A stretch of 64,000 nt of DNA from a virus. The stretch lies in the IMG/VR virus record IMGVR_UViG_3300021513_000001, positions 1 through 64,000 of that record; one strand, given 5' to 3'. This document shows positions 13,439 to 30,900 of the stretch, in pieces. Every line of letters begins with the position of its first letter. Position 1 is the stretch's first letter. The notes under the pieces were generated by a model, which was not told where the DNA came from, searched no databases, and worked only from the letters and a program-made list of their open reading frames with translations. The position numbers and the translations under genes were made by a program.

Positions 13439-14572
13439 CTATTTTTTAGCTCCTACAACTTTTTTTAAAGTTTCAATATATAACTGGCCTATAATCTGAT
13501 AATTAAAATATTTAATTACATGTTCTTTAGCAGATAAACCCGTTTTTTTAGCCTCGTTTTTATGTTCATATATATACTTCATTATATCAGAAGCTTGTTT
13601 AACATCAGCTTGTGCCCAACACTGATCTGAAACATACCAAGGAGTATTAATCATTCCAAACACAGGAGTTAAAACATAATCAATTAAATAACTATTATTT
13701 TTATTTAAAAATTGATTTACTCCGCCATATCCAGTTACTATAGAAGGATTCCCAACCGCAGATGCTTCAGCAATAGGTAATCCAAAACCTTCTCCTCTGT
13801 TCAAACTAACAAAACAATCACCAAACTTATGTAATTCTAATATTTCTCTATTAGATAATATATCTAATATTAAATACACTCTAGCATAATTTTTTCCTTT
13901 TGGAAGTATTATACTTTCCTTTATTTTTTTAATTGTTTGTATAACAATATTTTGTTCCTGTTCTGAATAACCATACCTATAAACCTTAAGAACCAACGCT
14001 ACGTTGTCTTCACCACTAAAAGCATGCCAATATGCTCTAAGAAGAGAAACTGGGTCTTTCTTTTCAACCATCTGAAACACAGAATAAAAAATATAATCAT
14101 CTTTTTGTGGGCCATTCATAATAAATTTACCAATGCCATTAAACTGCGTGGTATCTATAATGTGAGGAACACAATATATAGGAACAGTCACCCCACTATT
14201 ACTAAATACTTCAACATTCCACTTACACGGAACAAGTATAGCATCCATGCTATTACAATAATTTATCCAATCATGTGGTATCTTATCAGTCTCCCATACA
14301 GTATATCCTATATTTATTTTTCCTTCTTCTCTATATAAAGGATAGTGTTCTGGAGTTAAATGTATTAAATTAACATCATAATCTATTCGCCTGTTTATAT
14401 AACTTGATAAATAATCTCCAAGTTTTCCAAGATCTGGCCGTTGTTGTTCAAAACTAACAGGTGATAATGTAAGATCAACACCTTGTTCTATCAAAGCTTT
14501 TATATAATGTCTAGCACAAGAACCATAACCACTACCGTCTAGTATAGAACCCCAATATTTTATTTTTAACAT
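13439..14572 (-). CDS. GT4 glycosyltransferase
   Basis: SGYG, TVWET and GEGFGLPIAEA motifs. Confidence 0.9.
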   Translation of the reverse strand: MLKIKYWGSILDGSGYGSCARHYIKALIEQGVDLTLSPVSFEQQRPDLGKLGDYLSSYINRRIDYDVNLIHLTPEHYPLYREEGKINIGYTVWETDKIPHDWINYCNSMDAILVPCKWNVEVFSNSGVTVPIYCVPHIIDTTQFNGIGKFIMNGPQKDDYIFYSVFQMVEKKDPVSLLRAYWHAFSGEDNVALVLKVYRYGYSEQEQNIVIQTIKKIKESIILPKGKNYARVYLILDILSNREILELHKFGDCFVSLNRGEGFGLPIAEASAVGNPSIVTGYGGVNQFLNKNNSYLIDYVLTPVFGMINTPWYVSDQCWAQADVKQASDIMKYIYEHKNEAKKTGLSAKEHVIKYFNYQIIGQLYIETLKKVVGAKK

Positions 14573-14581
14573 AATTAAATC

Positions 14582-14657
14582 CGATGCTTTTTTGTTAACT
14601 TACGTTAACAAATGCACCACTCTCCTTTTTCAGAGTGATGGGGGCATCTCCCAAAAC
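14582..14657 (-). promoter_or_regulatory. conserved SD-hairpin leader element, copy 1
   Basis: 43-nt core 14585-14627 is 40/43 identical to copy 3 and 38/43 to copy 2; AAGGAG, then stem-loop, then 9 nt, then ATG 14572. Confidence 0.8.
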
Positions 14658-14678
14658 TCGCAATAAAATGTTGCGAGT
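14656..14678 (-). terminator. possible intrinsic terminator/attenuator hairpin
   Basis: Perfect 8-bp inverted repeat ACTCGCAA/TTGCGAGT followed by only a short U run on the minus strand. Confidence 0.35.
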
Positions 14679-14796
14679 GCCATTAATGTCTCTATCGATC
14701 TTGTTTTTTTTAAAATGTTAATGTATCAGCAACAGTTAATTAGCCTTTATAAATTTCTAATGATACACCCACGATCGAAGGCCGGGAATTACGTGA

Positions 14797-15024
14797 CTAA
14801 ATTTGTTCATCATCAAGTTCGTTTATTCCACATATTTTGACCATATCCCATAACAAAACATAATCCTTTTTTTCTAAATAATGACAATAACCATAAGAAC
14901 AACCATCGTCATCTTCACCATACTCCCAATATGGACACGGTTTTATTTTGTATTTACCGTCTTTAAATCCAAGAGATGTATAACAATAATCACCATAAGG
15001 TATTTCTGCAATTTTTTTACTCAT
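14797..15024 (-). CDS. small Cys-rich hypothetical protein
   Basis: IPYGDYCY...CPYW...YCHYL...ICGIN; AAGGA SD upstream. Confidence 0.7.
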   Translation of the reverse strand: MSKKIAEIPYGDYCYTSLGFKDGKYKIKPCPYWEYGEDDDGCSYGYCHYLEKKDYVLLWDMVKICGINELDDEQI

Positions 15025-15060
15025 ATAAAAATCCTTTTAATATAACTTTATTTTATTGTA

Positions 15061-15076
15061 CGCAATTTCTATGCCA
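15061..15076 (-). promoter_or_regulatory. sigma54-type promoter TGGCATAGAAATTGCG
   Basis: GG-N10-GC; intergenic, upstream of the ORF starting at 15024. Confidence 0.7.
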
Positions 15077-15104
15077 AATCTTGAAAACTTGTATCCCCAA
15101 AATA

Positions 15105-17561
15105 TTAAATACTCACAGATTTAAACGGTTTAATTACTTCAGTATTTGTTACTGTAAACTGTGATTTAAATATATTAGATGCTTCATTAAATAAATTAAT
15201 CCATTTAGGTACAATACTACGTTCCCAGGTTAAATTATTTATAACATACTTATAAGCCGCCTCTGCTTTTTCTTTAGCCTCTTCTGGATTATTTATAACA
15301 TGATTCATAACTTTAACAAGATGATCTATATCAACTAAAGGTCTTAAAACCTCATTATCGTTTGGTAAAATAGTATATAAATTTTCATTTGTTCCTGAAT
15401 CTACCAAATAAGCTATATCATCATTTATTAATTCAGGAATCATTGTATTATTTGGCATAATAACGGGTTTTTTTGTTGCCATACCTTCAATCCAAGAGTT
15501 ATGAACTATCATATTTTCTGCTACAAAATTATTAGTATTTTCGACTTGAATATCTACAAGAGTTCCCCTATACGGAACTTTATTAATTGTTTTGATAGGC
15601 AAAAGTAAATATTTTTTATTTTGACTACATTTTTCGCCATTATATACACGATCAGAAATAATGTTAGGTTCTATATTAAACATTTTTAATAATTTTCTTT
15701 TTGAAATACCAGAAACATTTACCTTATATTCAACCCTACTAGTTCTCACAGAACTTAGTATTCCTAGCTTTGCTAAAATTAATCTAAGACCGTAAGCTAC
15801 GTGTTTTGAAGTAGTCGAAAAAGTCATCTCATAATCTGTTTTACAATAACAACCATCACCAATAAACTCACCATTAACAAATTCGATTAAATACTCTAAC
15901 GGTTGATTCAATAAAATAGATGGTATTTTTTTATTTCTAGCCCCATGATCAAACAAATTATAAAATAAATTTGCAACAACAGACGAATAAAATCTAATAG
16001 TTTGACAACCATATTTATTGCCACGACTTTTGTTATCTGTATAATAAACATTTAACCCAAAAACCTTTTTCATTTCATTCGCTACAAATTCAATTATATT
16101 TGTTTCTTTTTTATTAAAACTAAATAAAATACTATCTTTTTTAGAAGCACTAACGCACCCTTCAGCCAAATATAAACCAAATAAACGCATAAGTGTTTTT
16201 GTTATTTTTATTTTTTTAGGTATAAAAATACCAGCATTTTCAATAAAATTAGAAGTTAGCCTAAACATGTCCCCTGTTTCTTCTAAATTTAATATTTGTC
16301 TTGCGTTTAAAGTTTGTGTAACTATATCATATATATCTAATTCGCTTTTTGTTTCAAAATGTTTCTTTGGAAATAATAAATTATCTCCTATTTTTAAATT
16401 CTCAGCTTTTTTCCATATATATTCTCCATTTTCAAAAACTTTAAAACCATGCTCTGGAGAAGTTTTTAATGGTATATTAGATAACCACGTAGTTATTTCA
16501 TAAAGATCACCATCAAAATCTCTCGACATTATTGCTCGAACTTTATTATAAGTTCCGTCATCAGACAAAACTTTATCTTGTATTGTAATATCTCCAATCT
16601 CTTTAAGCCCTTCTTCCGTATATATTGTTGAATGATTACAAATACATAAACCAAAACCTTCTCCTAACGCAGTACTAACAACACAATCACAAGAATTATA
16701 CAAAATATTAACAACTGGAACAGGATATCCCTGATTTGGGCCAAAATTTTGTGGAAATACTACATCTGTTTTAGTACTTAAACCTAAAACTTCACAGACT
16801 TTATCTAATCGCCACCCCTGATCTCTTACTGCCATGTGACAATAAGCTAAAACATTCGAATTAGTTTCTTTTACTTGTTTATATGCTCTTATAAATCTTG
16901 GAATATCTTTTCTTTGTTGATTTCTATTTAAATTACAAAAAATAAACTTATCTGCTTGAGGACCAAAGTATCTTTTCCTAAAATCTACTGCTTCTTGATC
17001 CTGTCTTGGGTAAAAATCTTTATCATTAACCCCGTGATAAATAACTCTAATATTTTTTTTAGTCGCAGTATCACCAAGAGCCAATAATGTAGCATCTTTA
17101 GCAAACTGAGTATAAGCTACAGGAATATCAACCGAAGTTACTGCCTCTGCCCAAGACTTTTTAATAATAGAGTCACATGGATAATAACACAAACTAACAA
17201 ATTTCTTTCCTTGCGCTTTTAATTGCGGAATATATTCTGTAAGAAACTGCAAAATAAAAGAATCTTGCAAAAAAAACAAGATATCAAACTCCATATGTTT
17301 AGCCATTTCCATAAACTTTTTTCTTCCATAAGGATCATGCTCTGAATTTAAACCGGCAGGCCAAATATTAAACACCTGTGTTAATGGTGGAGCAGGTGAT
17401 CCCCAGTAGTTAATTGCAAAAATATCAATATCATATTTACCTGTTTCATATAGCCCTGTAAAAATATTCTTAGCCACTGTTCCAAAACCAGTCGCCACAG
17501 TAGGGCTATCGCAATAAGCCAAAATTTTTAATTTCTTTTGTTGTCTTGGTTGATTAAACAT
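15105..17561 (-). CDS. GT4 glycosyltransferase containing an intein
   Basis: TGFG, NRNQQRKD and GEGFGL/SWIEGMA motifs, split by a 383-aa intein; spliced product would be 435 aa. Confidence 0.9.
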   Translation of the reverse strand: MFNQPRQQKKLKILAYCDSPTVATGFGTVAKNIFTGLYETGKYDIDIFAINYWGSPAPPLTQVFNIWPAGLNSEHDPYGRKKFMEMAKHMEFDILFFLQDSFILQFLTEYIPQLKAQGKKFVSLCYYPCDSIIKKSWAEAVTSVDIPVAYTQFAKDATLLALGDTATKKNIRVIYHGVNDKDFYPRQDQEAVDFRKRYFGPQADKFIFCNLNRNQQRKDIPRFIRAYKQVKETNSNVLAYCHMAVRDQGWRLDKVCEVLGLSTKTDVVFPQNFGPNQGYPVPVVNILYNSCDCVVSTALGEGFGLCICNHSTIYTEEGLKEIGDITIQDKVLSDDGTYNKVRAIMSRDFDGDLYEITTWLSNIPLKTSPEHGFKVFENGEYIWKKAENLKIGDNLLFPKKHFETKSELDIYDIVTQTLNARQILNLEETGDMFRLTSNFIENAGIFIPKKIKITKTLMRLFGLYLAEGCVSASKKDSILFSFNKKETNIIEFVANEMKKVFGLNVYYTDNKSRGNKYGCQTIRFYSSVVANLFYNLFDHGARNKKIPSILLNQPLEYLIEFVNGEFIGDGCYCKTDYEMTFSTTSKHVAYGLRLILAKLGILSSVRTSRVEYKVNVSGISKRKLLKMFNIEPNIISDRVYNGEKCSQNKKYLLLPIKTINKVPYRGTLVDIQVENTNNFVAENMIVHNSWIEGMATKKPVIMPNNTMIPELINDDIAYLVDSGTNENLYTILPNDNEVLRPLVDIDHLVKVMNHVINNPEEAKEKAEAAYKYVINNLTWERSIVPKWINLFNEASNIFKSQFTVTNTEVIKPFKSVSI
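15498..16646 (-). mobile_element. intein with LAGLIDADG homing endonuclease
   Basis: Starts at Cys (CICNHSTI); block B TSPEH; LFGLYLAEG and VNGEFIGDG helices; ends VHN before extein Ser+1. Confidence 0.92.
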
Positions 17562-17596
17562 AAAACTTTCTCCTTAACAATAATCATTTATAATAT

Positions 17597-18733
17597 TTAT
17601 TTTTTCTTCCTACGAATATCTAAAATAGAAGTAGTATAACTAACATTTGAAATAGCATCTGCCTCTTCTTTAGTAATTATCTTCTTTTTAATAAGATCAT
17701 TTAATTTCTTATTTACAACACTAACACATTTAACTAAATCATCAGCACCTACAATACTATATAAAGCATAAGGATCATAACTAATCCTGGGTATTTGTCT
17801 TGTAAAAATATTGAATTCGTCTGTAACTATTTTATTATTATTCGAAGCATTAATTTTTTTAACTAAAATACTTTTAATTTCTTTCATTTTTAACTCTAAA
17901 CTTTTAACCAAAATACGCATCTTATCATATGCATCTGCCAAAGCATTTTCATCATCAAAAATATGATGATCTGGTATATTATCCTTTATTTCTTTTATAG
18001 CAGGGCACACATTTATATACTCACACCAAGGACAAAATTTATTAAGCTCTGGTTTTAAATCTTTCTTTTTTGCCTTTAAAATTAATTCATAATTAGTTTT
18101 TAATAATTGAATAAAAGAATACCTCTGTTCTTCTGTTCTTTCACTATATTTTGGAAAAAATCTTAAATAATCTAAACATACAATATATTTACTATAATCA
18201 GGAAAGAGTACTCTCGCCGCAGAATCATACAAAGAAAGCTGAATATCTACATTAATTTCATTATCAGTAAGAACACTATGCGATGTTTTGTAATCTATAA
18301 CACACAAAGTACTATTGTTAAACTCAACTACTTTATCCATAGCCCCTATAACAGGAACACCGGCAACTTCAACTTTAAAATTTTTTTCTAATGTTATAAT
18401 CTTTTGATTAAATTCAAATTTATCTAATTTCGATAAAAGCAAATTAAGACCATCAAAAATAACAGCTTCATCACCAATATTTAAACGAGAACACTCAGAC
18501 ATATAAACTCTAACTATTTTATCTATATCGTTCTCATCAAAACTTTTTAATGATTTAGTTTTAACTAAGCTTCCTGCGTATTCTAAAGCAGCATGATCAG
18601 CAAGACCCATAGTTAAATAATCCTCATTTTCTTTTACAGGTTTGGCCTGAAATTTATGATAAATACAACCATATTTATATTTACATTGTAGCCATGTTCT
18701 TAATCTTGATGCTGATAAAGCAGATATTTTCAT
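17597..18733 (-). CDS. PD-(D/E)XK nuclease (RecB/Cas4-like, Fe-S cysteines)
   Basis: SAS..C; GAMD...IDYKT; QLSLY; CPWCEYINVC. Confidence 0.85.
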   Translation of the reverse strand: MKISALSASRLRTWLQCKYKYGCIYHKFQAKPVKENEDYLTMGLADHAALEYAGSLVKTKSLKSFDENDIDKIVRVYMSECSRLNIGDEAVIFDGLNLLLSKLDKFEFNQKIITLEKNFKVEVAGVPVIGAMDKVVEFNNSTLCVIDYKTSHSVLTDNEINVDIQLSLYDSAARVLFPDYSKYIVCLDYLRFFPKYSERTEEQRYSFIQLLKTNYELILKAKKKDLKPELNKFCPWCEYINVCPAIKEIKDNIPDHHIFDDENALADAYDKMRILVKSLELKMKEIKSILVKKINASNNNKIVTDEFNIFTRQIPRISYDPYALYSIVGADDLVKCVSVVNKKLNDLIKKKIITKEEADAISNVSYTTSILDIRRKKK

Positions 18734-18743
18734 AATATTTCTC

Positions 18744-19553
18744 CTAATTTAATAATTTTCGTAAAATTTCTTTATCCTCATCAGAAAAAGAAGAACTACT
18801 TGGAAATTTTATATCTATATTTACAACTAGAGAACCAAAATTACCAGAATTGTCTGGTACACCACCGCCGTTTACAATAATACTTTGGCCGGGTTTTATT
18901 CCTGGTTTTATACTCACTAGTGTTTCTTTTGTTTTAACTTCACCTTTACCGGTTCCATTACACAAAGTACATTTTTTTGTTGCTATCTTACCCGAACCCC
19001 CACAAGAACTGCAAGGCATTGTTATTATAGAATTCCGACCGTGTTGTATTCTTCTAACGCCAGAACCACCACAAGCTTCGCAAGTTCTATATTCTTCTAC
19101 ACCAGAACCACCACAATGTTTACATACAGTTCTATAATTAAATTTTACATTTTTTTCAACTCCAAAAATACTTTCATACAAAGTTATTTCAATACGTATA
19201 TTTGTAGTTTTTGGTTGAGAAGAACGCTTACCGTGAAATATATTATTAAAATTCATATCAAAACTAGAAAATATATCTTCAAAAGGATTCCTTCCAAAAC
19301 CAAAACCACCAAATGGGTTATCAAAACCAGAACTACCCTGTCTGTTAGGGTCTATACCCATATCATACATCTTTCTTTTTTCGGGATCACTTAGAACAGA
19401 GTAAGCCTCGTTAACTTTTTTAAACATCTCTTCTGCTTTTTTATCACCAGCATTCTTATCTGGATGATATTCCATAGCTTTTTTACGAAAAGCTTTCTTT
19501 ATATCAGAATCAGATGCCGATCTTGAAACTTCTAATATTTTATAATAATCCAT
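18744..19553 (-). CDS. dnaJ: DnaJ chaperone (J domain, G/F region, Zn finger)
   Basis: HPD motif; four CxxCxGxG repeats; shortened C-terminal domain. Confidence 0.95.
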
Positions 19554-19570
19554 TATCGTTTTCCTATATA

Positions 19571-19936
19571 TTATTCCATAATTTCTAACAAATCTCCGAC
19601 TACAGATAGTACTTTATCTTTATTGTTTACTGTTATTGAAGCTATTGAAAAAATCTGATTTTCTTTTAACGCAGGATATTTCTCTGTTGCAAATAAAAGC
19701 TCAATAACTTTTACTGACATTATATAAGTATACAAATCATTTTGTATTACAACCTCAATATCATCATTAGTTTTATCTTTATTTGTCAACTCAAAGAAAT
19801 CTGGATACAACTCTGAAAATTTACCATGCAAAGGTACATCAATAATGTAAGAACTAACTATTCGTTTAAAAGAATATGCCTTAAACGGTAAAATAACAAA
19901 GCCTGGCTGTCCTTTTATAATATTATTTTTTTCCAT
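19571..19936 (-). CDS. hypothetical protein
   Basis: 121-aa ORF from ATG 19936 (the track starts it at TTG 19951). Confidence 0.65.
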
Positions 19937-19945
19937 TTTATAATA

Positions 19946-20049
19946 TAACAAGGTGTTTTTATTAACCTGTTACTAGTGCTTTTTTATTAACTTGTGTTAA
20001 CAAATGCACCGTTCTCCTTTCTTAAAGTGATATGGTCATTTCAAAAAAC
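19946..20049 (-). promoter_or_regulatory. conserved SD-hairpin leader element, copy 2 (with a second hairpin)
   Basis: Core 19977-20019; extra stem-loop 19946-19972; 9 nt to ATG 19936. Confidence 0.8.
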
Positions 20050-20088
20050 AAACAACAAACAAATACTAATACATCAAATCTACTTTAC

Positions 20089-20424
20089 TTATACTAAATC
20101 TACATCATTAACTACTATGTCTGTCCAATACTTTTTTATAACACTATTACAATCTGGACAATTACTGTCATAACTACTAATTCTTAAATCACCCTCCATT
20201 CTAACAAGAACATCTTCTGGAATTTCTGCTACTGTTTCTGCCAAATCTTCCCATACTATAAAATTATAAAATTTATGTTTCTTATCTCCATCTCTTGTCA
20301 AAAAAGGAATAGCAATTTTACCTTTAGTATAGGGGTTTCCTTTTTTAGTATAATTTAAATTTGATTCTACTATTTTCCCAACCATCGTTACAGTAAGGTA
20401 TCCTTCTTGTTTTTCTTCGGACAT
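20089..20424 (-). CDS. ssb: single-stranded DNA-binding protein (OB fold)
   Basis: VTMVGKI, FYNFIVWEDLAE, VRMEGDLRISSY and YWTDIVV pattern; GGAGG SD. Confidence 0.8.
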   Translation of the reverse strand: MSEEKQEGYLTVTMVGKIVESNLNYTKKGNPYTKGKIAIPFLTRDGDKKHKFYNFIVWEDLAETVAEIPEDVLVRMEGDLRISSYDSNCPDCNSVIKKYWTDIVVNDVDLV

Positions 20425-20465
20425 AAATTTATTCCTCCATTTTTTTATTTCTATACTAAATTATA

Positions 20466-20481
20466 TGCAACATCCATACCA
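20466..20481 (-). promoter_or_regulatory. sigma54-type promoter TGGTATGGATGTTGCA
   Basis: GG-N10-GC; intergenic, upstream of ssb. Confidence 0.65.
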
Positions 20482-20495
20482 ACAAACAAATCATT

Positions 20496-21518
20496 TTATA
20501 TTAAAATATTTTTATTATTTTTCATATACTGATATAATAAACTATCCGCCTCCTCTTTTGTCAAATCTGCAGGATCAACATTAAAACTAGAAATAACAGG
20601 AATTAATGGTAACAATAAACCATATTTATTATTTGTTATTATTGTTCCTTGTATTCCTGCTGAATCTGGATCAAAAAACAAAACCACTTTTTTTAACGTG
20701 CGTATAAGAAGTTTAACTTGATTTGGTGTTAATAAAGAACCCATACAACAAACAACATTATCATATTGATATTCGTATAGCCTCCAAACAGCTTTAAATC
20801 CTTCAACAACTATAATATAATCGGATAAACTGTTTTTTGCATTGTTTAAATTATATAATATATCACCAGAAGCTATATTCCCAATAAGTAAATATTTTCT
20901 TTTTTTAATACCCTTTCTTGTATCTCTTGCACTATAACCAGCTAAAACATTATCACTATCATATATAGGAATTAATGCCCTGGTTACACCAAATTTGTCA
21001 ACATAACATTCTCCAGACACTCCAAAAAAATCTAAAGTATCTTTACTAAACGGTCCACCACCTATAGGTGGTGAATTTAAAAAATAACTACAGGGTTTAG
21101 TATCTAATTTTATATTTTTAATATTATAATCTTTTTTTGTTAATCCTTTTAAATAACTTAAAAACAAAGCATCTTTTTTACCATCATCACTAAGATTTCC
21201 GTCAAAAAAAACAGACTTATCAATTACAAATTCCGCACAAAACAAATTAACAGCTTCATTAAAAGAACATTTAAACACAGCTCCAACTAAATCAAAAAAA
21301 GACGACCCGTATATTTCATTACATTTGTTAGAAAAACATCTCCAAATAAGAGTATTTTTATATAAACAAAAAGAATCTTTTCTATCTCCACCATGAACTA
21401 TACAAGGAGCACGAAGAGACGAAGAATCACTAGTTATATTAGAAAACCCTAACCAGCTTAAAACCCTATCATACCCAATACTGCTAACAACAGTAGATAA
21501 ATTAATATAATTTACCAT
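20496..21518 (-). CDS. dnaG: DNA primase (CHC2 Zn finger + TOPRIM)
   Basis: CIVH...WRCFSNKC; YSAR; VVEG; FDPDSAG; DPAD. Confidence 0.88.
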   Translation of the reverse strand: MVNYINLSTVVSSIGYDRVLSWLGFSNITSDSSSLRAPCIVHGGDRKDSFCLYKNTLIWRCFSNKCNEIYGSSFFDLVGAVFKCSFNEAVNLFCAEFVIDKSVFFDGNLSDDGKKDALFLSYLKGLTKKDYNIKNIKLDTKPCSYFLNSPPIGGGPFSKDTLDFFGVSGECYVDKFGVTRALIPIYDSDNVLAGYSARDTRKGIKKRKYLLIGNIASGDILYNLNNAKNSLSDYIIVVEGFKAVWRLYEYQYDNVVCCMGSLLTPNQVKLLIRTLKKVVLFFDPDSAGIQGTIITNNKYGLLLPLIPVISSFNVDPADLTKEEADSLLYQYMKNNKNILI

Positions 21519-23104
21519 AAATCTGCGACCTCTGATATTTTACTTGTATCTTTTTTTGGTTTTACATTTTCAATAAGAACATCTTTATTTTCTTCCATTT
21601 CTTCATCAAGTACTTCGTAATCTTTATAATCTATTAACTGTGTATCAGATTCTTGAATATTTAAAATTGATTTTCTAAAATGAACTCCAATACCCTCTGC
21701 TGGTGTTTCACCACCGCGTCTAGAATATTTAATTACAAATTTGTGTAACCCACCACAAAAACCTAATTTTTCTATTTCTTCTTTAGTTTTTTCTTCCAAT
21801 ATTATAACAACATCTGCATATCTAGCTATCCTATCACTATCAGCAATATCCCCACTACGCCCGCGTTGAACAGCAGCAAGTATTGGTATATTTAACATCC
21901 CAGATAAATCTTTTAACGCTATTGTAGTATTACCTAACAACTGGTATTCTTTAATTGTTGAAAAATCTTCTTGAGCGCCTGATTTAATATAATCAAATAT
22001 TACCAACCCTATATTATGTTTACTATGAAATTTTTTTATCAAAGAAGTAACAGCTTCCAAAGTAAATCCAGGCATATATTTATGAAAATATTTTCCTTTA
22101 TTTTCTTTTTCTTTTAAAACTTTAGCTGCTAAAATAACCAAATCTTTTTCTGAATCATTAAATTGACCTCTTTTTATTTTCTTTTCTGGTATTTTTGTAA
22201 GTCTAGATAATATACGTGAACAATTTTGTTCTGTTGACATTTCTGTATCTATATACAAAATTGGAATATCTAGTTTAAAAGCTACATGTAAAGCTATATT
22301 CATACAACAACAAGACTTTCCACCTTTTTTATAAGCAGCTATAACATTAAGTGTTCCATTTACAAGCCCATCAATTCTGTCATCAAGTATTGGAAATCCT
22401 GTAGATATTCCAAGCATATCAACTGGGTTGATTAACACTTTTTCTACATAAGAACCCATATTAGAAAAAATATTTTTAGGATCATCATCGGTACTATTAT
22501 GTTGCATTAAATCTAATATACCAAGCTCTACATCATTCACAAGATCGTCATAATTTACCCCGTGATTAGTCAAAACTTTTTTTACATTATCACTCTTATT
22601 ATCTAAATAAAATAATAACTTATTTTTTTTGCTTGTATTTAAAAATCTTTTTATATATAAATCTATATTAAAAAAATCAAAAGAATTTAATATATCATAC
22701 AAAGAATCAATTTGCAAATTAACATTTGCAGTATTTAATACACCAGAATCCTTACACTGTTGTACAATAAAATCATTTTTTTTAGAAATAACTACACTTA
22801 AAATTTCGTTTACTAATGTAAGTTTATCTATTGATTTAATCTCGTCCTTATAAATACTAAAACAAACTCTAAAAAGCAGCCTGTTAAATGGTATAAGAAA
22901 ATCTTCATCAGAAGCAATAGAAAGTATATTCATAAAATTATCATATGAATAAATACAATAAGCCAATATTACACGTTCTACAGTTATATCAGTGCTCAAT
23001 TTATTGAAATTCTCACAAGAATTATCTTGAGAATTTTGTTCTACAGTAAGGCACTTTGGGGCGAGCTCGTGTGAATTTTTTGATTGCTTGTTTAATTCAC
23101 TCAT
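21512..23104 (-). CDS. dnaB: replicative DNA helicase, DnaB family
   Basis: GISTGFPILD; Walker A AYKKGGKS; DTEM; IFDYIK; AVQ; ADSD. Confidence 0.9.
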   Translation of the reverse strand: MSELNKQSKNSHELAPKCLTVEQNSQDNSCENFNKLSTDITVERVILAYCIYSYDNFMNILSIASDEDFLIPFNRLLFRVCFSIYKDEIKSIDKLTLVNEILSVVISKKNDFIVQQCKDSGVLNTANVNLQIDSLYDILNSFDFFNIDLYIKRFLNTSKKNKLLFYLDNKSDNVKKVLTNHGVNYDDLVNDVELGILDLMQHNSTDDDPKNIFSNMGSYVEKVLINPVDMLGISTGFPILDDRIDGLVNGTLNVIAAYKKGGKSCCCMNIALHVAFKLDIPILYIDTEMSTEQNCSRILSRLTKIPEKKIKRGQFNDSEKDLVILAAKVLKEKENKGKYFHKYMPGFTLEAVTSLIKKFHSKHNIGLVIFDYIKSGAQEDFSTIKEYQLLGNTTIALKDLSGMLNIPILAAVQRGRSGDIADSDRIARYADVVIILEEKTKEEIEKLGFCGGLHKFVIKYSRRGGETPAEGIGVHFRKSILNIQESDTQLIDYKDYEVLDEEMEENKDVLIENVKPKKDTSKISEVADLW

Positions 23105-23571
23105 CTTGCTTTAAAACCAAGTTCTCTTTCTCTTCTAGTCAATTCTTTCTTTAAAGCATTAACATAAAATTCAAGATATTTATCAATATTATCAAGTAGA
23201 GCAAGCTCCACTAAAATATGATTCAATTTTTCATCTTTATCTGCCAACTCACTAGAAGACCCAAGAGCTAACATTCTTTTTTCAGCTTTTGTTCCTTTTA
23301 CTATATTATTTTTTGCTACAAAAGTTGCAATATCAACATCTATATCTCTTTCTAAAGCAGCCCTTTGTATTTTAAATTTGTTTATTTCTAAAGTTATATA
23401 AATTATATATTGCGACACCCCAACTATCATCTTTGTAATTTCTGTCTCTGGAACAGTATCGAGATCTCTAACGTTAAAAGAAAGAGCGTTATCTATAATT
23501 TCACTGCTCGGCTGAATTTTTCCTATTCCCGTTCTATTAAGAGAACCTTGTATTATCTTATTTATGTCCAT
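23101..23571 (-). CDS. helical protein, possible UvsY-like recombination mediator
   Basis: About 156-aa amphipathic coiled-coil located between the helicase and RecA genes; function inferred from size and context only. Confidence 0.4.
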   Translation of the reverse strand: MDINKIIQGSLNRTGIGKIQPSSEIIDNALSFNVRDLDTVPETEITKMIVGVSQYIIYITLEINKFKIQRAALERDIDVDIATFVAKNNIVKGTKAEKRMLALGSSSELADKDEKLNHILVELALLDNIDKYLEFYVNALKKELTRRERELGFKAR

Positions 23572-24388
23572 AATCAGAATCTCCACTAACAAAACATTTA
23601 AAACGTGGAAACATTAAACTTCCATCTTTTTTTACATCCTCTGCTTCAACCACTATTTTTTTACCCAACAACTTTTCTCTATTTTTCCAAAACTCTTTTC
23701 TTTGATAATACTTCATCCCACTAACTTTTTCTATAAGACCATTAAAATTAACAGAAAAAGAACCAAGAACCCCTGATTTTCTTCCAACACCCTCATTACA
23801 AGAAACAATACTTAAATTAAAAACTTTTGTTGGTTTTTTTTCAAACCATGTATTTTCTTTATCATACAATGAATAAAACTTCTTTAATATAATACTCTCA
23901 AACCCTTCTTCTAAACAGTATTTATAAAAATCCAAAATATCCTTCTTATCTTCTAACAAAACATGATAAGCCATACTTATAAAATCAGAACGAATTAAAG
24001 ATAAAACATCTAATAATCGGTTGTACCTTTTATATAGTGGTTCTTTTACAGCAATATCTGTAATTAACTCTTCAGAATAAATTGAATCAAATATATTATA
24101 TTTTAAACTTTCTTGGTTATTTAAATCAACAGTTGTTATTTCCCCATCAAACACTAAGCCTGTATTTCCAAAATATTTATCAAGAACTTCTGTTATCCTT
24201 GGAAAAATTAACTTTTTACCTTCTTCAGAAAAAAGAAAATAGTTGCCTTCTTCTGGAATAGCAACACATCTAACACCACCAAGCCTTGGATAAACTAAAA
24301 ATTTACCGCTAGGAATCTTTTTTATAAGAACGTAAGGTTTCACAACAAACCAATTATCTCCTATTTTAACAGTATTGTTTATAAACAT
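23558..24388 (-). CDS. ATP-dependent DNA ligase homologue with degenerate active site
   Basis: Recognisable motifs I (PRLGGVR), III (FDGEI), IIIa (IFD), IV (ESIILK) and VI (SLMFPRF) plus OB domain; KxDG reads RxGG. Confidence 0.8.
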   Translation of the reverse strand: MFINNTVKIGDNWFVVKPYVLIKKIPSGKFLVYPRLGGVRCVAIPEEGNYFLFSEEGKKLIFPRITEVLDKYFGNTGLVFDGEITTVDLNNQESLKYNIFDSIYSEELITDIAVKEPLYKRYNRLLDVLSLIRSDFISMAYHVLLEDKKDILDFYKYCLEEGFESIILKKFYSLYDKENTWFEKKPTKVFNLSIVSCNEGVGRKSGVLGSFSVNFNGLIEKVSGMKYYQRKEFWKNREKLLGKKIVVEAEDVKKDGSLMFPRFKCFVSGDSDYGHK

Positions 24389-24399
24389 ATCTCAAACTA

Positions 24400-24415
24400 T
24401 GCAAAAATTACACCA
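24400..24415 (-). promoter_or_regulatory. sigma54-type promoter TGGTGTAATTTTTGCA
   Basis: GG-N10-GC within a 32-nt intergenic gap; predicted start site falls 1-2 nt before ATG 24388. Confidence 0.55.
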
Positions 24416-24420
24416 CAAAA

Positions 24421-24651
24421 TTATTTAGCTTTATCAAAATCTAAATTTTCATTTTTATCTTTTATTTTGTTTCCCGTACATAAAAAATCATAAACAACTT
24501 CTCCTTCTGGAGATATAAACTCAACATATTTTGATATCATTCCTGTTTGTTTACATTTAAAACTTAAATCACAATACCTTTCATCACCAAGTATTGTTCC
24601 GTCTTTTAATGGTACAAACGAAGGACAGTCTTTAATTAACAATAGCCCCAT
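24421..24651 (-). CDS. hypothetical protein
   Basis: 76-aa ORF with 4 Cys. Confidence 0.6.
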   Translation of the reverse strand: MGLLLIKDCPSFVPLKDGTILGDERYCDLSFKCKQTGMISKYVEFISPEGEVVYDFLCTGNKIKDKNENLDFDKAK

Positions 24652-24991
24652 TTATTTTCTCCTTTACATATTCTGGTGATAGTTTTTTTAACTCGTTATA
24701 AAAAAATCTAACCAAAATATAATTATTATCAGTAGCATACACCTCTTTAATTTTATCTCTTATTTTTTGTCTATTAAACCCTACTATATCCCCATGATAG
24801 TGTTTAACAAACTTTACATGTTGTTCTCCATGGCACTCGACTAAAACATTTAATTCCTTAATAAAAAAATCATAAAAATATTTATTTTTATTAATATTTA
24901 CATAAAATTGAGATTCAATTTTAAAATACGGAAAACATCTTTTTAAACATTTAAACATTTTATCTTCAAAATAACTCATAGACCAATCCAA
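24632..24991 (-). CDS. Vsr/DUF559-like endonuclease
   Basis: FYDFFI...LVECHGEQH; RDKIK; LVRF. Confidence 0.75.
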   Translation of the reverse strand: MDWSMSYFEDKMFKCLKRCFPYFKIESQFYVNINKNKYFYDFFIKELNVLVECHGEQHVKFVKHYHGDIVGFNRQKIRDKIKEVYATDNNYILVRFFYNELKKLSPEYVKEKINGAIVN

Positions 24992-25009
24992 ATATCAAAT
25001 GTTGAAAAA

Positions 25010-26101
25010 TTAATCCGTTTTTTCAATATATGCAGGATTCAAATATTCATCTACAACTTTCTCATAATTATGATTTCTTATTCCAAACAAAAGAAGAACT
25101 TTATTCAATATATCATTAAGTAGTTTCCTATCTTCAACTAAAACATTACGAAGATTATCGAAACCTTGTGCTAATGATTTTCCATTATAAGAATACCAAG
25201 GGCCACCTACCTCTAGTACACCAATATCAACAGCTATAGTTATCAAATCTCTAATAATATCAAAGCCTTTACCAAAAATTAAATGTGTTTCAAAAGTAGT
25301 TCTTGGAGGAGCAAGTCTATTCTTTGTTATTGATATTTTTATCTTTTGCCCTATAATTCTACCGTCATTGTCTACTATATTATTACTCTTACTTTGTGTA
25401 CTAAAAAGCTTTATTTTACATGATGGGAAAAATTCTACTGCAAAACCGCCCGTTGTTTTTATTACAGGACCTCCTGGAGAATGCTGGCTAGCTGTAATAT
25501 CAACCCTTTGTTGATTTATTAAAATAAGAGTTGTGCTTGTATCTCGTAATAAAGCATTTATCTTTTGTAAAAACTTTCCAATTAAAACTGCCCTAGCTGC
25601 TATCTTAGAATTATCTGACAATGATTTAGATTCTTCAATTTCAGGAAGCAACGTAGCCAAACTATCTATAACTGCAACAGAAATCATATTAGATTTTATT
25701 AATGATTCACACCCTTCTAGCAAAACCTCTCCAATAGAATGTCTTTGATAAATTAATTTTTCTGGATTAATATGCATTCCTTTAAACAAAGATTCTTCTA
25801 TTGCACACTCAGCATCACAAAACAAAGACAATTTGTCCTCTTTCTGCACATACCTAGAGGTACTCATAGCTAAAGTTGTTTTACCTGATGAATAATTACC
25901 CGATATTTCATACATTCTTCCTGTTGCAAGACCTCCTATACCTGTTGCTAAATCTACCGCTAAACTTCCAGTGTGTCTAACATTATAAGACAAATTAAAA
26001 TCTTTAAGCCTACCAGCTACAGGTATTCCAATTTTTTTATTTAAAGCGCTTATTATTGCATCTACGTCTTGCACTTTATTAATAACTTTACTTTTAGCCA
26101 C
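25010..26101 (-). CDS. recA: RecA/UvsX recombinase
   Basis: TGSLAVDLATGIGG; GNYSSGKTT; DAE; VIDS; INQ; TTGG; KNR. Confidence 0.93.
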   Translation of the reverse strand: MAKSKVINKVQDVDAIISALNKKIGIPVAGRLKDFNLSYNVRHTGSLAVDLATGIGGLATGRMYEISGNYSSGKTTLAMSTSRYVQKEDKLSLFCDAECAIEESLFKGMHINPEKLIYQRHSIGEVLLEGCESLIKSNMISVAVIDSLATLLPEIEESKSLSDNSKIAARAVLIGKFLQKINALLRDTSTTLILINQQRVDITASQHSPGGPVIKTTGGFAVEFFPSCKIKLFSTQSKSNNIVDNDGRIIGQKIKISITKNRLAPPRTTFETHLIFGKGFDIIRDLITIAVDIGVLEVGGPWYSYNGKSLAQGFDNLRNVLVEDRKLLNDILNKVLLLFGIRNHNYEKVVDEYLNPAYIEKTD

Positions 26102-26624
26102 ATTTTTCTCCTAACATATCTACCAATTCAGATTTTATTTTTTCTAAATTTGGTTTTTTATATACAGCTCTTTCATATTCTACATATAAAGCTTTCCAAT
26201 CTTTTTCTGTATACCCTGTTCTTTTATTAATTTCATTTTCATCTAACGAAAGACATTTTTCTATTATCCAACTCCCTTTATTAGATGATAAAATTTTTAA
26301 TGAATCAAACCTATAATAAACACTAAAAAAATCAAGATTATCAAAAACCATATCAATAATTGTTTTACATTTAAATAAAGCTAATTTATCAGAAGCACTG
26401 CCATCATGAGACATTTGTTTTACAAACGTGTTTGCATATCCTATCTCTGCTTTCCATAAAATAGAAGAATAATCTATACCATAAAAAACACGGACCTTAC
26501 TAAAAAAATATTTTGTTAATTCTACACAATTTTTCGGTACATTTTCAATATTAAAAGGTTTATATATACAATACCCTCTTTTTTCTAAAAATTCAATACA
26601 AGTTTTTTCATCCAAAAACAACAT
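26094..26624 (-). CDS. hypothetical protein
   Basis: 176-aa ORF overlapping the recA start. Confidence 0.7.
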   Translation of the reverse strand: MLFLDEKTCIEFLEKRGYCIYKPFNIENVPKNCVELTKYFFSKVRVFYGIDYSSILWKAEIGYANTFVKQMSHDGSASDKLALFKCKTIIDMVFDNLDFFSVYYRFDSLKILSSNKGSWIIEKCLSLDENEINKRTGYTEKDWKALYVEYERAVYKKPNLEKIKSELVDMLGEKCG

Positions 26625-26647
26625 TAGTACTTATACCACCAATTAAT

Positions 26648-27739
26648 TTATTTAAGCAAAGCCATAAATGATAATTTAATTCCAGTATCATCACTAATTT
26701 TTATTATATTACCATCAAACTGTAAATTAATGTTTTCACCTTTAAACGATGAACACAGATTATATAAAAAAAGAGAATTTAAAAAAACATTAACGTTTAT
26801 TGCATTCTTGTTTAATGCCGTATCCAATTCTAAAGTTGAATCAAATCCATCAGAATTTATCTTCATCCTATTATTATTAATAGTAAGATTTACTTTATTA
26901 TCCTGCTTTCCTTTTGTATCAATATTTGCACCCCTAATAACATTTATAAAACTATTTCGATTAACATAAACACCAGAACCAACAAAATTTATTAAAGAAT
27001 CTAACGAAGGAAAAGCCAAATTTATTTTTGGAGAATAAATAACAACAGCACCAAAATCACACACAAAATAAGTAGAAGAATAACAAATATTAGCATTTTT
27101 ATCTAATAAAGAAGCGATATTAGAAATAGCTCTTGCAGTATTAGATGGAATTACAATAGAATGATCAGAAAACTGATCACTTTTTATAGTATATATACAA
27201 CATCTTACACCATCTGTTCCAGCCAATCTAAACATTTTATTTTTACTTTCAATAAGAACTCCTACGGTTTGAGCTGAATATTTTTCAGAATTATCAGCAC
27301 CTGTTGCGACAAAAGCCATCCCGTCTTTTGCAGTCGCTGGATCTATTGATGCTATTTTGTTAAAATTTTTAGCTCTTATTTTAGTTGTAGTCTTTTCAAT
27401 ATATTCCAAATAAAGATTATTTTTAATTTTATTTTTATTATTATTAACTATTTTAAAAACATTATCTTTTATTAACAAGGAACACGTGCCTTCTTTTCCA
27501 AAATTTTTAATATAACTTATATACTCTATAAATTTATTACAATCAATACAAATATCTATATTACTAGATGTATTTATAAGCGTATCTACAACCACTCTAA
27601 CTTTTTTTCCAGAAGCCATTAAAACTCTTCCATCTTTTGTATAAATATTCAACCAGTTTATATCTTTAGAAATATCAGAAAAACTAAGACATTTAGACAA
27701 TAATAACAAATTAGAAATAATGAAATCAAATTTAACCAT
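26648..27739 (-). CDS. dnaN: DNA polymerase III beta sliding clamp (divergent)
   Basis: 363 aa; GVLI...AGTDGVR; VIP; FP; N-x2-FL; C-terminal FMALLK, as in beta clamps. Confidence 0.8.
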   Translation of the reverse strand: MVKFDFIISNLLLLSKCLSFSDISKDINWLNIYTKDGRVLMASGKKVRVVVDTLINTSSNIDICIDCNKFIEYISYIKNFGKEGTCSLLIKDNVFKIVNNNKNKIKNNLYLEYIEKTTTKIRAKNFNKIASIDPATAKDGMAFVATGADNSEKYSAQTVGVLIESKNKMFRLAGTDGVRCCIYTIKSDQFSDHSIVIPSNTARAISNIASLLDKNANICYSSTYFVCDFGAVVIYSPKINLAFPSLDSLINFVGSGVYVNRNSFINVIRGANIDTKGKQDNKVNLTINNNRMKINSDGFDSTLELDTALNKNAINVNVFLNSLFLYNLCSSFKGENINLQFDGNIIKISDDTGIKLSFMALLK

Positions 27740-27747
27740 AAAACATC

Positions 27748-27793
27748 CAGTGCTTTTTTGCTAACTTATGTTAACAAATACACCACTCTCCTT
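27748..27793 (-). promoter_or_regulatory. conserved SD-hairpin leader element, copy 3
   Basis: Core 27751-27793; 8 nt from the stem base to ATG 27739. Confidence 0.8.
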
Positions 27794-27837
27794 TTTTTTT
27801 AATCAATAAAATAATAAATTTTTTTATAATTTATATA

Positions 27838-27853
27838 TGCAATATATGTGCCA
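27838..27853 (-). promoter_or_regulatory. sigma54-type promoter TGGCACATATATTGCA
   Basis: Exact TGGCAC-N5-TTGCA match at the head of the replication operon. Confidence 0.8.
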
Positions 27854-27956
27854 ATAACCATTAAACTCATTATATAGTTACTGAACAAAGAGTAGAAAGA
27901 AAATCAAAACTTAATTATCATACATTATTAATACAAATTAATACAAAAGGCGTGCC

Positions 27957-30900
27957 ATGTCAGTATCTCTAAACACAAATATTGATAAAATTGTTTTCAC
28001 TTCACCTAATATGCCAAGCCCAAGCCCAGCAGGCTTACGTTCGCACATAATACCAACACAAACAGATTTAGGTACCTGGTATGAATCAGGCGCAACAATG
28101 ATCAGAGTTGCTTTTGCACAAAATATTTATGATCTCTCATATAACACTGGAATAGACAGACCTGTTTTTGGTATATCAGGCATAGTTACCTCAGATACCT
28201 CATTTGTAGAAAATCAAACAAACATAATATATGTAAATACAGACCAAACCTGGTCACTATCTCTACCAAGAAATGCTTATATAGATGACAACAGCTGGTT
28301 TGTAGTAACAGATATTTCAGAATATGATTATGCTGACTCTCCACCAAATGAAGACTCTTTTTTAAAAAACAGCTTTACATCTTCTGGTACTTTAAACTCA
28401 ACAAGAGATATAATAATAAATGGCTGTGCTACATATATGGAACAGTACAATTATATTTTTAATACAAACCAACTATACAAATATGATCCTTCTACAGAAC
28501 AATATAACTTAGTATCTCAATGTCCTTATAATATAAGTTACCCAGTAACAATGCTTGGCGTTAGTGGAACATTACACATATTTTATCTAGACACAGAAAA
28601 CAGCTTAATAAAAAACATACAATATAACACGGATACATCAACATGGAATACTAAAAGCAACCACGAATATTATTCCTCTGCTTCCTCATTAACCGCTTTA
28701 AAAGCCGTTTTTTTAGACGATACAATAAAAATTACACTAAAATACAGTGAAAACTCTGTTCCCCCAAACTTATATATTTATAGTTATATTCCAACTTCTG
28801 ATTCATGGAGCAGCACTTTTATAGCAACATGCGGATACTACAATCTTAATTTTAATAATGCAATTATAGAATGTAATAGCACACATTTATTTTCATTAGA
28901 AAGATCATCAAAACTCCTACACAAAATAGACCTTGATACAAAAACTGATGATCAAATGATTATAAAATATGAAACTTCAGACAAAAGTTCTTCAATATTA
29001 AAAGATAATTATTTATATACTTACATTGAAAATTCTAACAAATTTACAAAAATAAACATAAATACAAAAGAAAATTACATCCTTACATCGCCAACAATAT
29101 CAGGAACAGATGCAACAATACCAAACGAGTCTACTACATTATCTACAAACGGCACAGACTTGTTTTTAAGTCTAAATAAAGGCGTTAGTTGGGATTCTCA
29201 AACAAATTTATACAAATATAGTATAAGCGAGGACTTGTGGTCAGAAATAAATGTTCCAAAAGCAGGTAGCGTATTCTTTAATGGAAAAATGTGCAAATAT
29301 GAAAATAATATATATGGAACTGATGATGAAAATTTATACAAATATGATACTACAAACAATAAGTGGGTTGTACTTACAACGTTACCAAGAACAGATGCTT
29401 TTGATTCAATAATAGCAGCAAACTCTACACATATATATATAATAATATCAGAATGCGGTTATTTTTGGAGATATGATTTAACAACAAGTACTTGGGAAGT
29501 ATTACAAAGCATTTCTTTGCCTGCACCGCTATCTTATGAAGGAACATGTCCAGGAAGTTTGCTTATAGATGGTAATATTATATATTTAGGTTTATATTAT
29601 AATTATGTATTATCTACAAGAGACACTTTTTATTATAAATATAACATATCTGAAGGAACCTGGTCTGCTTATGTAGCCCCTAAAACTAGTACAAACAGAT
29701 CATTTTATATGTTATTTTATAAATCTGGAAGTGATATACATTTAGCCGGGGATATTTCATACACAGGAAATCCAGTAGATACATATACATATAGAGATCA
29801 TAAATGTACAAGTTTAGAAAACAATACTTGGGAAGTTAATAAAGCAGTAACTATAAATGCTATAAGCCAAGAAAAATATATATGTATGTACGGTCAATAC
29901 TATTTAAATAATAAAATTTATATTAGTTTTACAACAGCTACTAACTTAGGTTTTGTATGTAGTGGGCCAACATGTAGACAAATAGATGTATCAACAGGAA
30001 CGTCAGATTACTGGATGATAAACCCGATAGACAAACATTACATAATATCTGACCCAAACGATGTCAATTTATATTGTGCTTCAGTAACTAATGGAATATT
30101 ATACAATTACAGCACAGCTTCTGGCACAACAACAAAACTTTCTGTACCAAGAAAATCATTTGTAAATTATTATATATGTAAAAACGGAAGCAACGACTAC
30201 CTTCTTGGGAAACAGGAAATAGAATACGATCCAGATCTATACAACTATAAATTTTATGTATACAAATATAATACGGGATCTTGGGATGAGTACGATGTTA
30301 AAGAAATAACCTGTACCTCTGGGACTTTAAAATTAAACACAATACAAGAATACTATAATCTAGACAATACTGTGTACATGGCCTCTTTTATAAGAAATAC
30401 TAAAAATTTAGATGTTTCTGAAGCAAAACATAAAAAATACAACATACCAAACAAAATACTTGATGATTTCTCTGCTCCGGAATTAACAACCTCGATAACA
30501 TCATCCGGAACAAATTTATTTCTAGCAATAGGAAATACAATTAAAAAATATTACACAGAAACAGAAAATACAGAACTGTTTCAAGAAGGTATAGCAGGAA
30601 ATAGATCATCTTCTTTTCCATACACTTACAAACACAATGGAAAATTAAGAGTTACAGGAAACCAATATTTTACACCTACGGACGGTGGAAAATTTATAAC
30701 GTATGAAGAACCAACAGGAAGTGGGAACTGGTCAATTGTAGATTCCAAAAACACACCCTCTTCGTTATACAACACTTTAGACTATGCAGAAAAAAACAAC
30801 GAACTATATATAATAAACACAACAGAACAAATAATTTTAGATTTAAACACTTTAAATCTAGAGTATGTAGCTAACGCCCCTTACTCAACACTGTGTTCTA

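Follow-up and report, generated by a model that had tools for sequence, protein, structure and literature searches.

Analysis of the first 64 kb (hereafter the window) of a virus genome, IMG/VR record IMGVR_UViG_3300021513_000001, indicates that a family of short intergenic repeats very probably represents the right ends of a tnpA/tnpB transposon of the IS607 family, a known kind of element, together with its non-autonomous and decayed derivatives. The record, here called G000, is 114,332 bp long, approximately 54% complete and has a GC content of 28%. A preliminary description of the window had read its three repeats as a regulon of conserved leaders, in which RNA hairpins would bridge a Shine-Dalgarno (SD) sequence to a distant AUG and switch the translation of unrelated genes. 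Our data replace this regulon by transposon right ends: one full-length copy, three mini-elements of 163-164 nt and three relics.

Identification of the element

The three 43-nt copies in the window (copies 1, 2 and 3) were verified on the minus strand at 14585-14627, 19977-20019 and 27751-27793, with identities to copy 1 of 38/43 for copy 2 and 40/43 for copy 3; the core palindrome occurs three times in the window against 0.33 expected. These copies are real, but the whole unit is bigger (copy 1 extends over 163 nt, 14581-14743), and the window's three copies are part of seven in the 114-kb record. All seven are on the minus strand, with palindromes starting at 14591, 19983, 27757, 83781, 84675, 107855 and 114109, and a covariance model run on G000 recovered the same set and no other. 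The copy at 114109 is the full-length one, cut by the contig end; those at 14591, 83781 and 84675 are minis, and those at 19983, 27757 and 107855 are relics.

To place the repeat, we scanned metagenome contigs for the hairpin core and found more than 115 loci with the same 3' module. At most of these the hairpin is located at the extreme end of a long open reading frame (ORF), and similarity between loci stops abruptly after ...GTATCGG. The long ORF stops at the TAA or TAG of ATT TGT TAR, and these codons make up the hairpin's 5' arm. The ORFs upstream of the hairpin encode TnpB RNA-guided nucleases, with NF040570 scores of 129 and 108 bits (cut-off 100) and the Pfam domains Cas12f1-like_TNB, HTH_OrfB_IS605 and OrfB_IS605.

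The whole unit is present in L116, one of the L- and G-numbered contigs (L116, L013, L005, G002) that are metagenome or phage relatives of G000; over the whole overlap, the final 234 nt of G000, its identity to G000 is 100%. The unit consists, in order, of a tnpA gene of 196 amino acids, tnpB, the hairpin and ...AUCGG. The tnpA gene (L116:7345-7935, minus strand) matches the IS607 transposase model NF033518 with 171 bits (cut-off 110) and carries the Pfam domains MerR and Resolvase, that is, the serine recombinase with an N-terminal MerR-like domain that is proper to IS607. As in that family, tnpB lies downstream of tnpA; it scores 129 bits with NF040570 and ends ATT TGT TAA inside the hairpin. 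Translated matches to the TnpB C-terminus were found in G000 at 114126-114332, 84692-84805, 83798-83902 and 14622-14711, the first of which covers the last 69 residues at 100% identity in an open frame that runs off the contig end. The closest solved structure to this TnpB is mimivirus L79 (Fanzor2; E 1.7e-24) and its RuvC-I motif is DPG; the protein was therefore placed in the DPG clade of IS607, which is mainly cyanobacterial and has been described as the source of Fanzor (PMC10711439).

Some features of the relatives were also recorded. The TNB domain of the L116 TnpB (L116:6282-7421, minus strand) has no cysteines where a CxxC...CxxC zinc finger is usual, and near its end cysteines occur only in the terminal C-I-C, the codons of which constitute the hairpin arm. 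A second TnpB subfamily (L012, L015, L023, L034, L050 and others) has the same terminal hairpin and ends in TGAACGG. At many cyanobacteria-like loci the 3' module follows not a tnpB ORF but a long conserved stretch that is non-coding.

The right end as a structured RNA

Alignment of 51 copies from phage and non-phage relatives showed that the last approximately 110 nt of the element make up an RNA of several helices (S1, P1, Pa and Pb), of which the hairpin first described is the terminal one, Pb. Changes on both sides were observed in 18 of the 30 pairs, compared with 12.2 +/- 1.6 in shuffled alignments, and the covariation score was 0.255, compared with 0.144 for shuffles and 0.08-0.11 for slid controls. 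Helix S1 changes on both sides in seven of its eight pairs, and P1 is GAUAC/GUAUC in some copies and GAUGC/GCAUC in others, which is compensatory. Pa is a variable hairpin that holds AAGGAG in its loop and 3' arm. S1, P1 and Pa, which lie outside the hairpin first described, covary across more than 45 relatives, and this supports a guide RNA. The same nucleotides are also coding: the S1 stretch encodes the RuvC-III motif D-R-D-I-N-G-A-R-N-I, and AAGGAG encodes K-G-E near the TnpB C-terminus.

The omega-RNA scaffold of IS607 elements ends 5'-...UCGG-3', and with TCGG as its internal sequence the element avoids cleaving itself (bioRxiv 10.1101/2023.11.20.567912); the right-end element RNA (reRNA) is about 150 nt long, has three stem-loops and extends beyond the transposon boundary (PMC10711439). 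The right end analysed here agrees with these published points; it is structured and ends in AUCGG, and similarity among relatives stops exactly there. By analogy with published IS607 biology, it is predicted to be the omega/reRNA scaffold.

The preliminary description was right that the minus strand folds into a stable, strand-specific hairpin, which is one part of this structured RNA. The 41-nt hairpins of copies 1, 2 and 3 have energies of -15.2, -12.5 and -12.8 kcal/mol (z = -6.4, -4.7 and -4.0), and the plus strand of copies 2 and 3 folds less well (z = -2.4). Each comprises a lower stem of 5-6 bp, an A/AAA internal loop, an upper stem of 9 bp and a tetraloop. It also holds that the substitutions in the stem are C to U or A to G on the minus strand, giving G-U pairs, and that the remaining ones affect the loop or the base of the stem. 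As proof of selection on RNA this is weaker than it appears and not decisive alone, because a change of GTTAAC to GTTAGC in both arms equally fits a directly repeated hexamer bound by a protein. Both arms are GTTAGC in most relatives, and the A/G position in the 5' arm belongs to the TAA/TAG stop codon of tnpB.

Scans for sigma-70 promoters and terminators around copies 1 and 2 revealed no convincing promoter inside the element. Pa was flagged as terminator-like, with a weak tail. S1 was ruled out as a terminator, given that its pairs covary like those of an RNA helix and that its sequence codes for the RuvC-III motif.

Probable insertion into Shine-Dalgarno sites

IS607 elements recombine, without duplication, through a GG dinucleotide present both at their ends and in the target (PMC6188088), and the transposon-adjacent motifs (TAMs) of other IS607 TnpBs are AGGAG or GAGGG (PMC11061315). 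The junctions agree with this. The right end is ...TCGG, there are neither inverted terminal repeats nor target duplications, and a GG borders the left end in four of the five junctions of the phage lineage, where the flanks read GAGG (83781), GTGG (84675), AAGG (14591) and GAAGG (L116). When left and right flanks are rejoined, they restore an SD-like purine run followed, after 5-8 nt, by ATG.

Four of the seven right ends lie 5-8 nt upstream of a called start; the share of intergenic GGs located 4-13 nt upstream of one is about 10%. Intergenic GGAG/GAGG outnumber CTCC/CCTC by 54 to 17. Among non-phage relatives, 11 of 74 distinct right flanks adjoin a start. The earlier impression that copies always precede start codons extends only partly to the four further copies of G000: two of them adjoin starts and two do not, one being 19 nt from a start that has its own AGGAGG and the other 185 nt away.

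In the mechanism that we propose, TnpA would join the GG of the element end to a GG in the target. In a phage with 28% GC the tolerated GGs would mostly be those within SDs, and the element would land between SD and AUG, with its terminal GG taking the place of the SD's own; the GG asymmetry would help to set the sense orientation. The approximately 20 nt past UCGG, which are the start of a phage gene, would then act as guide, and TnpB would cleave uninserted alleles, so that the element would be kept or spread.

The distances between GGAG and AUG (49, 77 and 48 nt for copies 1, 2 and 3) and the missing proximal SD upstream of all three genes are as first reported. SD-less starts are nevertheless not unusual here, given that only about 40-50% of the called genes of the genome show an SD. 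The absence of a proximal SD, the constant distance of 8-9 nt between stem and AUG and the sense orientation had been taken as signs of regulatory design; these features, the short distance of 5-11 nt from the element to the AUG and the repetition at unrelated genes would follow from GG recombination inside SDs.

Several observations weigh against the transposon reading. The full-length copy of G000 is cut by the contig end, and tnpA is visible only on L116. The left flank of the L013 junction is GA instead of GG. The search pattern limited variation in Pb to A/G and C/U, so that this helix gives no independent covariation. Rfam searches of the window, of three loci and of the L116 right end, at gathering thresholds and at E<=10, returned nothing relevant, RAGATH-18 included, in keeping with a clade in which the RNA and the coding end of tnpB overlap. 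No empty-site allele was found in viral contigs with the glycosyltransferase and the clamp, the genes downstream of copies 1 and 3, as single queries; alignment of the clamp returned one locus in viral contigs, cut before the N-terminus, and nothing in bacterial genomes. We infer insertion from the junctions, from the two identical 164-nt copies and from the flanks of the full-length copy, which differ between G000 and L116. Finally, AAGGAGA is sharply conserved in relics that have lost the scaffold, and the transposon account alone leaves this unexplained.

A possible spare ribosome-binding site

No evidence points to the translation switch formerly proposed, whether controlled by protein, temperature or RNase. 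Of the hairpin bridging, the geometry is present, while the co-regulating switch is not borne out: closing of the hairpin would shorten the 48-49 nt between SD and AUG to about 11-12 nt. The copies show a distant SD, a hairpin in between and a workable spacing on folding, as in a split ribosome-binding site, a geometry read from sequence and predicted folding; in T4 gene 25 the spacing goes from 27 to 11 nt (PMC3014915). As a layer upon the transposon origin, the element could thus supply a spare ribosome-binding site: the closed hairpin would leave about 8-14 nt between AAGGAGA and the AUG, the split gene would still be translated and the relics would be retained for translation. This is the bridging of the preliminary description without its switch, and we consider it rather doubtful.

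The pattern of decay favours such a role. In the relics the stretch from the A-run to the terminal GG is much better preserved than the decayed 50 nt upstream of it: the A-run and AAGGAGA are identical to the intact element at 10-12 of 12 positions, S1 at 3-12/26 and P1/Pa-5' at 8-16/24. Intact relatives from other hosts show the opposite, with S1 and P1 kept and the segment of A-run and AAGGAGA as a variable loop (1-5/12). Pairing of the lower stem is maintained through sequence change (GGUGC/GCAUC, GGUGC/GCACU, GGUGC/GCACC, GAUGC/GCAUC and AAUGU/ACAUU), the closed spacing equals that of T4 gene 25, and the copy at 107855, which lacks AAGGAG, has its own AGGAGG 7 nt from the ATG. On the other hand, the spacing and the absent proximal SD are already given by the insertion mechanism, and about half of the genes of this genome have no SD anyway. 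A relic in G002 (14879-14987) has no SD, distal or proximal; in long copies AGAGUGGUG pairs with CAUCAYUCU, leaving the motif half-buried; AAGGAGA doubles as the K-G-E codons of TnpB; and the copies share common ancestry in a sample of about nine relics. The fuller claim, that the phage IS607 lineage evolved a built-in spare SD with which it inserts into ribosome-binding sites without silencing genes, leaving relics that are working leaders, is a little less likely still. If it were true, one RNA segment would serve as transposase site, guide-RNA scaffold and ribosome-binding site of a host gene.

Other readings of the palindrome

A further reading is that the palindrome acts only as DNA, with two GTTAAC/GTTAGC hexamers 10 bp apart bound by the MerR-type domain of TnpA and the hairpin as a by-product. 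The ends of IS607 elements do bear short direct-repeat motifs bound by TnpA dimers (PMC6188088), the left end analysed here also has two ATTAAC motifs, and the presence of GTTAGC in both positions in most relatives is the concerted change expected of a repeated protein site. We regard it as improbable that this is the whole explanation: S1, P1 and Pa covary without conservation of sequence, the lower stem covaries in the relics, and published IS607 guide RNAs extend through the right end to UCGG (bioRxiv 10.1101/2023.11.20.567912). Besides, the roles as DNA site and as RNA are compatible.

The segment might also stabilise the 5' end of an mRNA, where a ribosome or 30S subunit on a non-initiating SD would shield the transcript. 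Stabilisers of the STAB-SD and SP82 type have an SD-like motif plus a hairpin. The SD-like motif of the repeats, distant from the AUG and followed by a stable hairpin, resembles them, and, with a sigma-54-type promoter located about 45 nt upstream of relic 3, the motif would be near the 5' end. This role is nonetheless highly improbable; copies 1 and 2 have no close upstream promoter in our scans. The promoter motif in question is an exact TGGCAC-N5-TTGCA at 27838-27853 on the minus strand, and relic 3 would be within the 5' untranslated region of the clamp mRNA if it were used. In the window, where 0.68 matches would be expected, TGGCAC-N5-TTGCW with at most one mismatch has seven, each of them on the minus strand. 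Additional sigma-54-type matches on that strand are located at 65-80, 2312-2327, 9592-9607, 27942-27957 and 55166-55181.

The least probable reading, a leader peptide starting at the GUG after AAGGAG (GUG CAU UUG UUA ACG UAA) with reinitiation at the downstream AUG, was rejected: (G/A)UG is found there in all copies and an in-loop stop in copies 1, 3 and 114109, but the gap between GGAG and GUG is only 4 nt, the length varies from 5 codons (copies 1 and 3) to 15 (copy 2), and the tnpB frame (W/R-C-I-C-stop) and the stem account for the conserved letters.

Comparison with known systems

Within the transposon reading, the nearest known systems are IS607 TnpBs of the DPG clade (ISXfa1-type; Yoon et al. 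2023, PMC10711439). The element shares with them a MerR-type serine-recombinase TnpA, the DPG motif in RuvC-I, a GG at both junctions without target duplication, a right-end RNA of three stem-loops that runs past the boundary, and Fanzor2 (mimivirus L79) as nearest solved relative. It differs in its AT-rich phage carrier, in having AAGGAG within a variable hairpin, in a TnpB C-terminal domain without zinc-finger cysteines, and in occurring mostly as 163-164-nt minis or shorter relics adjoining start codons. The IS607 IStron of C. botulinum (Zedaveinyte et al., bioRxiv 10.1101/2023.11.20.567912) has the same strict GG target, the UCGG scaffold end and the protective internal TCGG, and limits the damage to the interrupted gene, as the element of G000 may also do; the latter has no group I intron, and if it limits harm at all, it would do so by the spare SD rather than by splicing. 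The ISFba1-type TnpB of IS607, with an reRNA derived from RAGATH-18 (Ren et al. 2024, PMC11061315), is similar in its SD-like TAM (AGGAG/GAGGG) and in the AG-rich motifs that adjoin the left end. Its reRNA lies entirely downstream of tnpB, whereas here the RNA overlaps the last approximately 35 codons and has no match to RAGATH-18 in Rfam. The split ribosome-binding sites of T4 genes 25 and 38 (PMC3014915) resemble the copies in the excessive distance between SD and AUG, the intervening hairpin and, for gene 25, an effective spacing of about 11 nt. The T4 cases are single genes, vertically inherited and experimentally supported, in contrast to the putative arrangement described here, which is delivered by a mobile element.

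These comparisons turn an apparent new translational regulon into transposon debris and remove a false lead. In an AT-rich phage, the SDs harbour IS607/TnpB elements, as the GG and AG-rich target predicts, and the right-end relics of these elements of 50-165 nt mimic conserved leaders, which annotators of intergenic repeats in phages should expect. This TnpB clade is the one nearest to Fanzor2 of eukaryotes and giant viruses, and its carriage by phages bears on the movement of such nucleases between hosts. The spare ribosome-binding site, if true, would be a new route by which a transposon limits damage, beside the splicing of IStrons.

Copies and downstream genes

Minis consist of a left end of about 37 nt (A/C-TAATTAACTGTTG...) fused to the last approximately 125 nt of the element. 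Two of them, at 83771-83934 and 84665-84828, are identical and 164 nt long, and copy 1 shares 90-98% identity with the remaining minis and with L013. About 110 nt further upstream are common to the four copies at 14591, 83781, 84675 and 114109 and include a GC-rich, terminator-like hairpin. A search for the left end upstream of the relics at 19983, 27757 and 107855 gave scores within those of shuffled sequences. Further relics are found in the relatives, five within 29 kb of G002 and a second one in L116.

Copy 1 (minus strand, like all features of this section within the window) is a mini without tnpA and tnpB that scores 99.4 bits with covariance model R1 (E 2e-18). The left-flank GG at 14744-14745, the crossover dinucleotide, forms the last two bases of the displaced SD AAAGG, and rejoining it with the sequence from 14580 downward gives AAAGG, 8 nt and ATG. 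A remnant of tnpB at 14622-14711 covers the last approximately 30 codons, starting with the RuvC-III motif DRDINGxRNI; compared with an intact tnpB it carries a frameshift, and it is 80% identical to residues 495-524 of the L116 TnpB (translated match, E 1e-9). Helix S1 of the predicted guide-RNA scaffold, supported by covariation, is at 14657-14677 (CTCGCAA/TTGCGAG), and AAGGAG, the candidate spare SD in the loop and 3' arm of Pa, at 14622-14627. Pb occupies 14581-14621, with a lower stem of 5-6 bp, a 9-bp stem, a GUAA loop and the end ...AUCGG, and contains the position of the tnpB stop (TAA, 14605-14607). All of the modelled scaffold is retained in copy 1, and mobilisation of this mini in trans may still be possible. 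The glycosyltransferase gene (13439-14572; Pfam Glycos_transf_1) starts 8 nt past the terminal GG of the element.

Copy 2 is a decayed right-end relic at 19973-20061 (model R1, 49.3 bits, E 8e-8), in which the terminal GG is now AG and the codons for KKGERCIC-stop are still legible. The second hairpin noted in the preliminary description (19946-19972) flanks this relic, between it and the ATG at 19936, and is outside the element. The ORF downstream (19571-19936) encodes 121 amino acids and has no Pfam family. Copy 3, at 27747-27801 (37.1 bits, E 3e-5), is the shortest relic and consists of the A-run, AAGGAGA, the hairpin and GG; no homology extends farther upstream, with 3/26 positions identical in S1 and 12/12 in the AAGGAGA segment. 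The sliding-clamp (DnaN-like) gene at 26648-27739 (Pfam DNA_pol3_beta_2) starts 7 nt past the relic GG and has the same N-terminus in 16 homologues; one of these is 99% identical and located on a contig of 143 kb, and others show 52-70% identity.

Outside the window, the two identical minis have one orientation, are spaced 894 nt apart and enclose two small genes (101 and 136 amino acids), each mini ending 5-8 nt upstream of a start codon. Two relatives, L005:2353-2490 and L013:7962-8128, have the right-end flank and the downstream gene in common and differ on the left side: L013 holds a complete mini-element, and L005 its last approximately 127 nt directly after an ORF similar to a cold-shock protein. 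The difference suggests recombination or deletion at the element. A large non-coding gap on the minus strand of G000 (~70880-71295) contains a sequence faintly reminiscent of the right end (...AGTAAGTTTTAACAAAAAAAGC...TCGG), along with a TGGCAC-N5-ATGCA motif; local similarity to the mini in this region, including 285 nt near 71000, scored 29 against a shuffle maximum of 35, which does not support a diverged copy there.

A megablast search with 7 kb against GenBank phages returned no match, and the pattern AAGGAGA...TTTGTTAR gave only chance matches in bacterial genomes and L135, none with the hairpin, and so provides no clue to the host. Very large ORFs (1617, 2388, 1736, 3320, 2362 and 5430 amino acids) follow one another on the minus strand, from 35937-63460 in the window to 63467-105661 in G000. 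The start of G000 (1-146; its first approximately 130 nt) recurs inverted at both ends of L013 (1-127 and 10438-10564) with 98-100% identity and is also present once in L005 (159-255); it could represent a repeat, either terminal or dispersed, or else a join made in assembly.

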